Notes under the pieces: generated by a model
What the model saw: only the letters and a program-made list of their open reading frames with translations
What the model was told of the DNA's origin: nothing
Database searches by the model: none
Shown here: positions 1 to 62,840 of the stretch, piece after piece
Layout of the letters: each line of letters begins with the position of its first letter
How positions within the stretch are numbered: the stretch's first letter is position 1
Made by a program: the position numbers and the translations under genes
Source: an uncultured virus (IMG/VR IMGVR_UViG_2571042712_000006)
Taxonomy: Duplodnaviria; Heunggongvirae; Uroviricota; Caudoviricetes
Length of the DNA stretch: 64,000 bases
IMG/VR virus record: IMGVR_UViG_2571042712_000006
Location: 1-64,000 of that record
Direction: 5' to 3' (one strand)

Positions 1-345
1 TTATAGCGCATCAGCCACACGATTTATTGGTTCTTGAAAACCAACGTTCTGGAGAAACAGCGGCTTATTCGGGATGTCAGCGCCATTCTGATTTTTTTCA
101 AGACGGGTTTTAACCTGTTCATCGATCAGCCTGCCAATGGCGGCGTGAAGCTGCGTATGTTCGCCTTTACTGAGTGGTATGCCGGCGGCTTCAATAACAG
201 TACAGACCTCTTCCTGGACTGCATCCCACATATCACTGTTGAGATCCGTTGCGCGGCGGCCCGTGGCGGGATCACCATTCGTAAATCCGTTTTTTCCCTG
301 ACCAAATTTATCTTTTTGCGCGGTGGGCGTATCAATTCTGTGCAT
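1..345 (-). pseudogene. Tail fibre, N-terminal part only, truncated just after the crossover site
   Basis: [21 protein letters not shown] start typical of SfV/ST64B fibres; stop at 1-3 shortly after FLQNVG. Confidence 0.88.
31..56 (+). other. Hybrid invertase crossover site: hixL-like outer half + AA core + SfV-like tail-fibre half
   Basis: TTCTTGAAAACC-AA-CGTTCTGGAGAA; left 12 bp + AA match hixL as recalled (TTCTTGAAAACCAAGGTTTTTGATAA). Confidence 0.85.
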
Positions 346-919
346 TCTCTTTTCCTTCCGGATAAGCAAAAACAACAACCGTATGCGATGGACAAAGCTT
401 ATCAATCACACATTCAGCAACAGTATCGCCCCACGTTCTGATCGCAGAGTCGCAGGTGCTTGTACAGGTCTGCCAGCTGATGTTCGCATCGGCCGGAATA
501 TTCACACGCCAGTAGTAACGCCAGAATTCCCCCCATTCAGGATCGGGTGTGCTGTCGAGATTCTGAAACTGCTCAATGGTGGCAGCGGTATACCCCAGCG
601 CATCAAGCTGTTCCCGATAAAACCTCTCGTTTATACCGCCGGCAACATTTGCCTTTGCATCCAGCCGTTGCTGGCGCTGCTGTAATGTCTGCACGCCTTC
701 CGGTGCACAGGAATCAGGCAGGCCATACAGCTGTTCATAACGGTCTATCAGTTCTGTGGTTCTGGCCGGATCAATTTCAGCCATCAGTTCATCCGCTCTC
801 TGATGTACCCGGTTCAGCGACGGCGCCAGCCCTTCAATCAGTGGATTTTCTCCGTCCCAGGCAGGCCCTTCCGGCAGAAGGTGATAAAGTAACTGCGTAT
901 ATTCGTCCTGTAATGCCAT
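332..919 (-). CDS. Baseplate protein, YmfQ/DUF2313 (Mu gp48-like)
   Basis: LLPEGPAW motif, C-terminal CPSHT, position before tail fibre. Confidence 0.85.
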
Positions 920-921
920 AG

Positions 922-1116
922 TTATCCGTTCTCCCCGGTATAGGTGGCCCAGGTTATATTCCCCAGGACAGGAAGTTCAGTTTTTTCCAGTACCACATCT
1001 GCCGTCGGCACACGCAGCTGATGTGCCACTTCCCCGGTCGCCAGGCTTATCGCCTCGCTGATTCGCGAAACAATCAATTGAGGAAGTTCAGGACGTGCAA
1101 ATTGACTGTCAGCCAT
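922..1116 (-). pseudogene. Baseplate J/gp47-like gene with large in-frame internal deletion (64 aa left)
   Basis: MADSQFARPELPQLI fused directly to C-terminal VSRISEAIS...LGNITW; family members are normally about 350 aa. Confidence 0.8.
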
Positions 1117-1522
1117 TAAGTTCGCTCCATATATCATCGAATGTAATATTGTGAATTACCCCGTCCCGCTGATATATCGTCACGCCAGCTGCCAGGGTAT
1201 CTGTTCCTGTGCGTTCAGATGTCACATCAATACGTGCCGCCACGCCATCGTCTGTCATCCACGCCAGCGCCTGCTGCATGTATTCGCGGGCATCCTGCGG
1301 CGTTTTATTGGTGAGTTTGCGGCGTTTCAGCAGGTAGAGGCGGGAACCGATGCGGTCATTCTGAACAGCAGGCCAGGTGTCCCCCCACCAGCCGTATGGC
1401 TGTGGGGTCCTGTCATCCCGCTCCGCCCGGCGCCAGGTAAAAAGAGAAATCACCACTGCCCGCGTCAGAAGGTCGAGCGAAGCCGTGGCATCCTTACGGA
1501 TTCCATTAACATAAAGGATCAT
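1109..1522 (-). CDS. Mu gp46-like baseplate protein
   Basis: AVVISLFT, GWWGD, IGSRLYLL motifs. Confidence 0.9.
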   Translation of the reverse strand: MILYVNGIRKDATASLDLLTRAVVISLFTWRRAERDDRTPQPYGWWGDTWPAVQNDRIGSRLYLLKRRKLTNKTPQDAREYMQQALAWMTDDGVAARIDVTSERTGTDTLAAGVTIYQRDGVIHNITFDDIWSELNG

Positions 1523-1526
1523 GATG

Positions 1527-2060
1527 TCAGCTCATGGGTTGGCCAGGCTTATCGGTTATACCGCCGCCATCGCCATTTTCTTTATGGGTATGACCGTTAT
1601 AGGTCGTGCGCATTTCAGCCATCGTTTTTCCACTGCTGTCACAGTTGTCCCTGATATCGCCAGTGGATTCGATCGGCATTTCAAAACGTGCTTTAGTGGC
1701 ATTCGTGAAAATAACTGGCTTTCCGCCGCCATTTATCACTATTCCGGCGCGGGTTAATGTGACCGACTGCCCCTGATCGTCATATAGCGCGACTTCCCCG
1801 CGCGCCAGCCCTTTCAGTCTGAAGCGGCGGTCAGCCACAACCACAGCCACTCCGTGTGAACGGTCACCGCCGGGAAACAATACCACCGCTTCTGCGCCAT
1901 TCTGTGCTGCAGAGGTGAAACCGTAAGGTTCAAGATGCTCCACATTTTCTTTTTTTTCACCGGCAATAAGTTTCAGTCCGGCAGTCTGGCATTTTCTGAC
2001 GGTATCAATCGCGGTAATGACTGCGCGCGTTATCATGTTCTGAAGAGGATGGTTAGCCAT
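1527..2060 (-). CDS. Baseplate spike, Mu gp45-like
   Basis: EPYGFTS motif and C-terminal HTH(K)E iron-binding motif. Confidence 0.9.
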   Translation of the reverse strand: MANHPLQNMITRAVITAIDTVRKCQTAGLKLIAGEKKENVEHLEPYGFTSAAQNGAEAVVLFPGGDRSHGVAVVVADRRFRLKGLARGEVALYDDQGQSVTLTRAGIVINGGGKPVIFTNATKARFEMPIESTGDIRDNCDSSGKTMAEMRTTYNGHTHKENGDGGGITDKPGQPMS

Positions 2061-61225: not shown

Positions 61226-61456
61226 TAAGACCTCCTGAGGATAAGCGCAGGTCAAGAGGATTATACTTGATTGGCAGTGTACGCCACCACAACAGGGGAA
61301 GACCCTTTTATATACAGTAGTTTCATTTGAATATGCGCGCAAGATACAGGAGTCGCTACGGCTGTTTAATTATTCATCTCTTCGTTTGTAAGTTTCTCTC
61401 TCAATTCAAATTATGGGTTTTGTAAATTTTCTGGTGGTATTGCCATATGCGCATAT

Positions 61457-61588
61457 TTAAGCCAGTTTAGAGGCCGGGAACTTTCTGTACAGCGTCGACA
61501 GCCCCAGCCCCACATCATAAATAATCGCTACCTGCTGCCGCGGTACTCCTGCCCTAATCAGGCGCCCGGCCTGCGCCCATTGCTCCGG
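61457..61588 (-). pseudogene. C-terminal HTH remnant of a Pin/Hin invertase
   Basis: PEQWAQAGRLIRAGVPRQQVAIIYDVGLGLSTLYRKFPASKLA*. Confidence 0.82.
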
Positions 61589-61626
61589 GGGAAAAGCCCG
61601 GACAATAGCCTTTATTGTGGGTTTAG

Positions 61627-62028
61627 TCAGGCTGGCTGTTCCGGCCAGTCAGGGGAAGCTGTATCCACACGGTTAACCATTACGCTGTAGAGTTCCCATG
61701 CTTCAAGCCGTTTAATCTCTTCATCTGTGGCAATTTTTAGTTTTACTGCCCGCGCCAGTGGTGCAATGGCTGATTCAGCTTCAGCAAGAAGTTCCGCTTT
61801 TCTGGCTTCAGCCTGTGCAACCAGCTCTTCAGGTGTATATTCGCGATGCTCAACCAGTACCGGGCCTCCTTTCCTGTGCTCAATATATTTTCCGTCCACC
61901 TGGCCCTGCATAAGTTCATGGTAATGCTCATCGGCCAGGGGAATTAAATCATCCGGGTAATCGCCTGATTTGGTATCCGGCTGCCAGAAAAAGCCTTTCT
62001 CTTTAAAGCTGTAATAATAATCGCTCAT
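61627..62028 (-). CDS. Tail fibre assembly protein (Tfa)
   Basis: C-terminal [19 protein letters not shown]. Confidence 0.9.
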
Positions 62029-62034
62029 TGATAT

Positions 62035-62826
62035 TTATCTCCCAATCGCAAACCAGGCCACAGGAAAATCATTGACCAGATTGGCCATTCCTGATGACTT
62101 GGTGGCGGCAAAAAACTGACTGTTGCTCACCGGGTATCCGAATGAGTTATCCACCTGGGCGCCCTGAGCGTTGGTATTGGTTACAAAAACGGCAAAGCAA
62201 CCAACAGGGAAAGCGCGCGGAAAATTGTAGGTTCCGTTTGAGTTACCAAGTGTTCCCCACTGCATTATAAATCCGGTGCTGTCGTCCAGAATCCAGCCCC
62301 AGTTCTGAATGCTGGCGCTATTTTTACGGGCGAAAGTCTGGTTAACATAATCCCATGTGGCGCGGGTGTTGATGTTGTTGTCACGAATTGCCAGTTCACC
62401 ATTGATCCAGTCAATCGTCCCACGGGTATTTAGCTGATTAGTAATCCAGATACTCAGCCAGTTATCCCCCCACACTGAACTAAAAATGTCGCCATTAGTG
62501 GTCATGCGCGCATTATCGAAATGAATATCGGTGAGCATGTGCAGCCCGTTGCCATTGATATAACCCACTTTGGCACCGTTACAGTAAATATCCAGTACGC
62601 CATCCGCGCTGCCGATAAATCCACTGTCACTGTCACCGATATTTATACACGGTGTGCTGCCGTCAAAAACGCCGGTTCCGATATTGCCGATACTCACGCG
62701 TTTTGTTGGGTTAAGCGTTTCTTTTAAACCGATATTTTGTACAAACCGCGGCTTGTCAGGAATGTCTGCACCGTTCTGTGATTTTTGTAGCGCATCGGCG
62801 GCACGATTTATCGTTTCGCCTAAACC
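62035..62826 (-). pseudogene. Tail fibre C-terminal (receptor-binding) part with no native start
   Basis: GLGETINRAADALQKSQNGADIP... begins at the crossover site; MQWG..FPRAFP..WFAIG gp53-like end. Confidence 0.87.
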
Positions 62827-62840
62827 AACGTTTAAGAAAA
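62815..62840 (+). other. Hybrid crossover site: tail-fibre half + AA + invertase-proximal half
   Basis: TTCGCCTAAACC-AA-CGTTTAAGAAAA; right half resembles e14 pixR. Confidence 0.88.

Follow-up and report, generated by a model that had tools for sequence, protein, structure and literature searches.

Hybrid crossover sites join the flagellar inversion system and two prophages in a Salmonella provirus record

We analyzed a stretch of Salmonella DNA of 64,000 nucleotides (the window), which comprises bases 1-64000 of one 71,238-bp provirus record (IMG/VR IMGVR_UViG_2571042712_000006) and contains an ST64B-like prophage (S), the flagellar genes fljA and fljB, and a P2-like prophage (P). The parts are joined by three crossover sites of the Hin family of DNA invertases, each of which is a hybrid of two parents that crossed over exactly at the core. 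The blocks between the sites are inverted relative to the native order, and all of the parental junctions are found in relatives. Considering these observations together, we estimate at about 85% the probability that the record holds a real and precise invertase-type rearrangement linking three inversion systems, in one genome so far. Base 1 of the record is the stop codon of the open reading frame (ORF) 1..405(-), while its final base is the start of ORF 70756..71238(-). As the record thus ends on gene calls, the provirus was excised in silico from a longer bacterial contig, and the start of the window is a gene-call cut, with no assembly break at site 1. The context given in a preliminary description of the window should be corrected in this respect, although the sites and the breaks are where that description had placed them.

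The three sites are 26 bp long with a central AA, can be read directly from the sequence, and are found at 31-56 (TTCTTGAAAACC AA CGTTCTGGAGAA), 37253-37278 (TTTTCCTTTTGG AA GGTATGCGAGAA) and 62815-62840 (TTCGCCTAAACC AA CGTTTAAGAAAA), referred to below as sites or junctions 1, 2 and 3. Each consists of two imperfect inverted 12-bp halves around a 2-bp core, the halves matching known hix or phage fibre half-sites, and as AA is on the plus strand at all three, the sites are in direct orientation. As had also been noted, every site lies at a gene break, with the fibre gene of S split at sites 1 and 3 and the fibre gene H of P broken at site 2. A half-site matrix scan of the 71,238-bp record returned exactly these three sites and no fourth, and the same matrix gave 0-3 matches on each of 20 mononucleotide shuffles, with none in 15 of the 20. 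It should be noted that the matrix was built from eight half-sites, including the sites' own halves, so that the scan is circular and the real evidence is the switching of parents.

Parent identity was followed by aligning the sites with their native partners, these being hixL and hixR of S. diarizonae, E. coli phage 500465-1 and Salmonella phage ST64B, and in 3/3 sites it changes exactly at the central AA. At site 1, bases 1-44 track the hixL flank and half-site of S. diarizonae (TTCTTGAAAACC AA), and from the core onward the sequence is that of the ST64B fibre gene (CGTTCTGGAGAAACAGCGG...). These 44 bases are 88% identical to S. diarizonae and 100% identical to bases 1-44 of IMG/VR locus L029, where they precede a 988-bp H segment. 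Site 2 has, on its left, exactly the fljB-proximal half of hixR (CATAAAATTTTCCTTTTGG AA), while the right side tracks the half of the 500465-1 crossover site that is proximal to gene H (GGTATG.GAGAAGACCAGC...). At site 3, the left side resembles the ST64B fibre directly after ST64B's own site (GATTTATCGTTTC.CCTAAACC), and on the right the sequence matches the invertase-proximal half of 500465-1 base for base (CGTTTAAGAAAATGCAGAGG...). The AA core is shared by the native parents hixL, hixR, both 500465-1 sites and the ST64B-like locus L119.

Each half is found in relatives next to its native partner. In IMG/VR, the fljB-side half of hixR is joined to its native inner half in 32/32 loci, and the hix inner halves are joined to their native outer partners in 28/28 loci. 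All 13 loci with the invertase-side P2 half have a P2-type variable start next to it, and an ST64B-type start is found there in none of them; in 6 of these 13, the 5' part of H lies upstream, co-oriented with the invertase and FI, with the invertible cassette between (~1.6 kb in L079). For the S fibre, locus L119 presents the window's variable cassette (94% to 61630-62832) directly joined to the constant part (96.5% to 1-831) with an AA core. Among the ST64B-like fibre sites (L115-L127), the core is AA in 7/13 and GA in 6/13, ST64B itself having GA. GA-core sites should not recombine with the AA-core hix or P2 sites and, given this polymorphism of the core, only some ST64B-like prophages could join a network of such sites.

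The layout of the window is given below, with the strand where one applies and the basis of each assignment in brackets.

1-43: chromosomal outer flank of hixL, on the iroB side, up to the core (100% to L029 1-44; 88% to S. diarizonae)
31-56, plus strand: junction 1, hixL outer half, AA and ST64B-like fibre constant half (parent switch at the core)
44-34607: main body of S, with baseplate, tail, head, lysis, regulation and integrase genes, inverted relative to native (ST64B identity, Pfam, G006)
34608-34637, plus strand: ssrA 3'-end fragment, the S attachment (att) repeat on the fljA side (29/30 bases match 60542-60571)
35121-35660, minus strand: fljA, phase-1 flagellin repressor (Pfam Flag1_repress, E 9.8e-92)
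35728-37248, minus strand: fljB, phase-2 flagellin (Pfam flagellin domains)
37253-37278, plus strand: junction 2, hixR outer half, AA and P2-like half on the side of gene H (alignment; contig bridge in run X1)
37226-38314, minus strand: truncated P2-like fibre H, ~350 N-terminal residues (Pfam Phage_tail_fib, E 7.7e-65)
37266-60541: part of P from the H 5' end to the integrase and ORF 59384-60415, inverted relative to FI-ogr (G009 colinear after flip)
60542-60576, plus strand: ssrA 3'-end fragment, att repeat common to P and S (Rfam tmRNA match 60400-60576)
60577-62827: detached right end of S, with att arm, invertase remnant, fibre assembly gene and fibre variable part (ST64B sb27/sb25/sb24 matches)
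62815-62840, plus strand: junction 3, ST64B-type fibre variable half, AA and P2-like invertase-side half (alignment)
62890-63462, plus strand: Fin-like serine DNA invertase of P, intact (Pfam Resolvase, E 2.3e-53; HTH_7, E 1.5e-15)
63605-64000, plus strand: start of the P2-like tail sheath gene FI (Pfam Phage_sheath; FI-FII-E-T-U-D-ogr continue to 70729 in the record)

The orientation of these blocks provides a second line of evidence. P runs from 37266 to ~59400 with the 5' part of H, I, J, W, V, lysis, capsid, terminase and replication genes, the C repressor and an integrase at 58362-59381(+), being 99.6% identical to E. coli phage 500465-1 over the H 5' part and overall ~95% identical to other records. 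The genes FI, FII, E, T, U, D and ogr follow on the plus strand to 70729 (Pfam Phage_sheath, Ogr_Delta) and are colinear with G006, G009 and 500465-1. As the preliminary description stated, H (N-terminal part, 37226-38314), I, J, W and V are on the minus strand and FI (63605 onward) on the plus strand, and the invertase (62890-63462) is on the plus strand as well; the P2 gene set is thus present, but its H-to-int block is inverted relative to FI-ogr. The ssrA fragments tell of the same disorder. Both 3'-end fragments (34608-34637, 60542-60576) read along the plus strand, whereas in phage 500465-1 the ogr end abuts an intact ssrA on the minus strand, beside smpB. A tandem array that had never been rearranged could not combine these orientations.

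The fljA-side sequence (~34640) continues, in 8/32 native Salmonella loci, into ssrA-like sequence corresponding to 60584-60416. The insertion point of S is thus between fljA and an ssrA repeat, and that of P is between this repeat and ssrA itself. The order in G006 is fljB, fljA, att, an S-type integrase and early region, a different structural module, an ssrA fragment, P2-like int to H, and FI to ogr. Against G006, the window runs backward from 37248 to 32341 and from 60851 to 37266, and forward from 63604 to 70727. Relatives thus support the native order that had been proposed, with blocks 44-37265 and 37266-62827 each inverted in place relative to G006. The single P2-like provirus of G009 (92-97% identity over the matched blocks) is colinear with both P parts after one flip and has a cassette of 1.58 kb between them. 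When both blocks are flipped, S measures ~36.8 kb and P ~33.5 kb, each with direct ssrA repeats.

Two further observations concern these relatives. The P2-like prophage of G006 (L112 6838-9218) has a fibre that is fixed and 601 aa long, next to an assembly gene of 191 aa, and neither an invertase ORF nor a crossover site is present, so that in this phage group the invertible cassette is optional. In addition, the 150-310 bases past the ssrA fragment (window 60577-60851) recur at 87-99% identity beside ssrA fragments in 25/25 IMG/VR proviruses (L084-L108), which were collected as matches to a 31-base pattern from the ssrA-fragment boundary. Several of these loci have S-type or P2-type integrases upstream. 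Phages that integrate at ssrA probably share 60577-60851 as an att arm.

For the route between the two orders, the native order was coded with site polarities (hixL +, hixR -, S site -, P sites - and +) and searched exhaustively, allowing inversion for each pair of opposite sites and deletion for each pair of like sites. This polarity-respecting search needed a minimum of three events, two inversions and one deletion, as the preliminary description had deduced. Four shortest routes were found, all with two inversions and a single deletion in which the H segment is lost along with the P cassette, and every one of them predicts polarities of +,+,+, which is what is observed at the three sites. 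As the four routes are equally short, the order of events and the junction produced by the deletion are not recoverable.

In the mechanism that we propose, the starting arrangement would have been the hixL flank, the H segment (hin and the fljBA promoter), fljB, fljA, then S and then P, in tandem at ssrA. Ancestral S would have carried a single fossil crossover site for its fibre and no more than the remnant of an invertase, and ancestral P an invertible fibre cassette with an intact Fin-like invertase. A Hin-family serine invertase, either Hin or the Fin-like enzyme of P, would have crossed sites of the different systems at their shared AA core, yielding two long-range inversions, one spanning about 27 kb and the other about 38 kb, as well as one deletion in which the H segment and the P2 invertible cassette would have left as a single circle. 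The invertase still encoded at 62890-63462 has 190 aa, is 68% identical to Hin with VRVST conserved, and combines an N-terminal resolvase domain that has the active-site serine with a C-terminal helix-turn-helix.

Both prophages bear the marks of these exchanges in their fibre genes. In S, bases 21-16865 are 98-99% identical to the structural genes of ST64B, more blocks match the ST64B regulatory region, and the prophage has its own integrase gene at 32543-33718(+). The ORF 1..405(-) (fibre 1..345) is 100% identical to residues 1-102 of ST64B Sb24 and ends ...FLQNVG, past which it reads 12 codons of the hixL flank, GFQEPINRVADAL*, and stops. The ORF 62035..62868(-) opens ...NVGLGETINRAADALQKS and aligns to Sb24 residues 96-134 at 74%, and the motif ...QNGADIP.KP.F.QN.GL.ET.N is repeated in the alignment of the fibre variable part. 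The earlier proposal that the 5' part at site 1 and the 3' part at site 3 belong together holds in that the two are colinear with one fibre gene, Sb24 (residues 1-102, then 96-134). S thus has no continuous sb24-type fibre, its fibre being split between 1-345 and 62035-62868. The fibre assembly gene (61627-62028(-)) comes after ORF 62035-62868, with Pfam Caudo_TAP and Gp53-like_C matches in this region, and an invertase remnant at 61505-61588 is 94% identical to ST64B sb27. This remnant is found 39 nt past the fibre assembly gene (61505-61626), where ST64B has the effector gene sb26 between the two and S does not.

In P, homology of H to 500465-1 ends at 37265, after which H reads through site 2 into the 5' bases of fljB. 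Within the record, P lacks the 3' part of H as well as G, and its att repeats are in opposite orientation. On the basis of these reading frames, both prophages are predicted to make truncated fibres and no complete fibre. As the att repeats of P are mutually inverted, clean excision of P would be impossible, while those of S now bracket fljBA and 23 kb of P. Since the three remaining sites are direct repeats, the surviving invertase would be able only to delete, not to re-invert.

At the flagellar locus, only outer hix half-sites are left in the record (31-42 and 37253-37264), and the fljB start codon is 4 nt from the outer half-site of hixR. H-segment DNA was sought in the 71-kb record and none remains, and the P2 invertible cassette is likewise absent; an intact hin-fljBA switch, with the H segment between hixL and hixR, is thus not present. 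As the fljBA promoter is located inside the H segment, according to the available passages of two reports (PMC3535392, PMC11047700), and no H-segment DNA is found in the record, the promoter is gone. Judging from this arrangement, fljBA should be promoterless and the strain should be locked in phase 1. The two genes now lie directly downstream of, and co-directional with, the P late genes V-W-J-I-H.

Some side observations on the flagellar flank and on S and P should be recorded here. Bases 1-44 of the window and 62785-62828, where the phage fibre variable part starts, are identical at 34/44 positions and, in frame, the hixL flank encodes GFQEPINRVADAL*, for which the phage cassette counterpart is GLGETINRAADAL. 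Because of this identity and the in-frame likeness, the hixL flank looks like a fossil tail-fibre cassette, which would fit a phage origin of the Hin system. In the 32 IMG/VR proviruses where the H segment adjoins fljB (L007-L038), it does so with the hin-start side in 21 and the promoter side in 10, the remaining one being cut short. Most of these 32 provirus calls terminate at a hin gene boundary, from which it follows that prophage callers treat hin as phage-like. In S, Rfam detects C4 antisense RNA (79.7 bits) and isrK (53.5 bits) at 26215-26403(-), adjoining the Rha/Ash-type regulator gene. The ORFs 33744-34598(+) (284 aa, in S) and 59384-60415(+) (343 aa, in P) each lie between an integrase and an att repeat and may be cargo genes; the Pfam/NCBIfam search assigned no family to either of them, nor to ORFs 60631-60906 and 61088-61342.

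Several explanations other than an invertase need to be weighed. The one that survives best, although we consider it very improbable, is an artefact of assembly or scaffolding, in which the three systems would be intact in the cell and the contigs misjoined at short repeated sites. The record has a single, draft-era source, and short-read assemblies often break at invertible segments. Contigs were checked with six words sampled from a 100-base probe that has junction 2 at its centre, with X1 being the probable source run. All six words were found in X1, the next best runs having 4/6 and X2-X20 having 3-4/6. Over 30000-45000, X1 contigs cover 30/30 bins at a depth of 19-30, and a 15,480-nt contig covers 37182-45000, extending 84 nt on one side of junction 2 and 7.7 kb on the other at ~20x. 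The continuity on which the preliminary description depended is thus upheld for junction 2, with this read-level check covering that junction only. The X1 contigs are a second assembly of probably the same reads and not a second sample. Nonetheless, they cross junction 2 at the depth of its flanks, with no loose end listed at 37265 or 37269 and no alternative ends, and the even depth gives no sign of invertase-driven deletion. Contigs of X2, X4 and X5 break at 37265/37269, and their loose ends spell the native partner halves. Neighbouring X1 contigs overlap by 30 bases, which fits a 31-mer graph, presumably the word length of the assembler, and in such a graph, sequences sharing <10 bases are not joinable. 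Indeed, the partner sites share few bases round the core, too short a stretch to mislead an assembler, and an artefact would need to have hit the 2-bp core three times while obeying polarity each time.

A real rearrangement that arose through RecA-dependent or illegitimate microhomology recombination, rather than through an invertase, is less probable still. Homologous recombination commonly produces prophage-bounded inversions in enterobacteria, and the half-sites do share short stretches, such as AAACCAA. These shared stretches are, however, below 10 bp, no longer repeat flanks any junction, and the exchanges occurred in 3/3 cases exactly at the core of a recognisable 26-bp site and in keeping with the serine-invertase polarity rule. 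Least probable of all is that sites 1 and 3 are native to the phages and the fljB/H junction alone is recombinant, as, even though fibre cassettes are mosaic (the fixed H-G cassette of P2-like phage SopEPhi shares 94% identity with 61631-62825) and ST64B homology extends to window position 21, 0/13 native P2-like loci have an ST64B-type variable start at the invertase-side half, the cassette is followed by the sb27-like remnant (94%), the att arm and the ssrA fragment, bases 1-44 are 100% hixL flank, and the ssrA fragments are misoriented unless both blocks are flipped.

The reading of the window as an invertase-driven rearrangement has drawbacks of its own that need to be considered, and the following points all weigh against it. 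Wild-type Hin-family invertases strongly prefer inverted sites within one supercoiled domain and with an enhancer in cis, while deletion between direct repeats and spans of 27-38 kb are disfavoured for these enzymes; the events must therefore have been rare. Only X1 carries junction 2, and contig support covers that junction alone. The hybrid sequence of junction 1 has 0 matches in IMG/VR and that of junction 2 has 0 matches in IMG/VR and metagenome contigs, with the window's own record possibly masked in both cases. As junction 2 is found only in run X1 and the hybrid junctions are unmatched in databases, the rearrangement is possibly a single, one-off event. Furthermore, no sister genome with both exact prophages in the native order was found. 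None of five IMG/VR proviruses adjoining fljA has an ST64B-like prophage, a search of phage records carrying a native H segment yielded just three fragmentary matches, and a FljA search of genome contigs matched only S. diarizonae and one unrelated metagenome-assembled genome, the S. enterica representative not being among the matches listed. In G006 itself, the structural module of the ssrA prophage is a different one, and the P2-like phage lacks an invertase. Finally, the loss of hin is seen at the level of the provirus record and may not hold for the whole genome, and any general claim of a network rests on one genome.

Such a claim, namely that the fibre sites of ssrA prophages and hix form one cis-acting network that is a recurrent and unrecognised source of monophasic Salmonella and grounded prophages, is tentative, and we lean towards doubting it. 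Were it true, the lesion of the U.S./Southern European Salmonella 4,[5],12:i:- clone could belong to the same network, its deletion ending in a hix repeat and adjoining a prophage tail-fibre gene (PMC11047700, PMC8049487), and the three direct sites found here would permit further precise deletions, from the prophage to iroB. The arrangement in the window shows how invertases can immobilise prophages. It also offers a testable mechanism by which ssrA prophages could destroy phase variation, the loss of which matters epidemiologically in monophasic Salmonella.

It is well known that Hin, Gin, Cin, Pin and Fin can cross-complement, which is described as one enzyme flipping another system's own segment. 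Moreover, Min of plasmid p15B, as well as Cin at cixQ, demonstrate that Hin-family enzymes can recombine more than two sites or imperfect sites if the core dinucleotides match. The sites in those cases are, however, within one module or on test plasmids, whereas here three systems over ~65 kb of a natural chromosome are involved. A search of the literature, conducted without most subscription journals, found no description of hybrids between hix and phage fibre sites.

Among the closest known systems is the U.S./Southern European 4,[5],12:i:- clone, in which a 70.5-kb deletion ends in a hix repeat, with a 5.3-kb prophage remnant in its place (PMC11047700), and in which inversion by hin alters the N-terminus of a side tail fibre gene (PMC8049487). 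As in the window, fljBA function is lost, one end is in a hix repeat, and a prophage remnant with a tail fibre abuts the hin segment, in the ssrA-hin interval. That lesion is, however, a deletion that keeps hin and the invertible H segment, and an invertase is not invoked in the passages available. The fibre gene of that clone may be a related hybrid, although a motif search in part of the supplementary data of PMC8049487 found nothing. In E. coli, PinQ of prophage Qin inverts the P segment of prophage e14 (PMC12529663), so that there, too, an invertase acts on fibre sites that belong to a different prophage. Nonetheless, both of those sites belong to e14 and the event, like that of Fin below, is trans action on an intact pair, giving a normal 1.8-kb flip, with no inter-system hybrids or long-range rearrangement described in the accessible text.

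The most similar setting is that of Fels-2. The action of Fels-2 Fin on the H segment of Salmonella was reportedly the subject of a 2006 study by Kutsukake et al. As described in later papers, Fin can invert that segment (PMC3535392, PMC12529663), Fels-2 fin is 34.5 kb from hin-fljBA, and hix and fix sites are 81% alike (PMC3535392, PMC4122451, PMC12529663). There, as here, a P2-like prophage at ssrA has a Hin-family invertase near hin-fljBA, and in Fels-2, the enzyme can work on hix. In those descriptions, however, Fin acts in trans on intact hixL and hixR and the segment stays invertible, whereas in the window, phage fibre halves are fused to the hix halves, and with the H segment lost, the change cannot be reversed. 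The record shows physical crossing-over between sites of three systems in a natural chromosome, with consequences, seen or predicted, in which the flagellar switch is lost and two prophages are left scrambled, fibreless and without clean excision.

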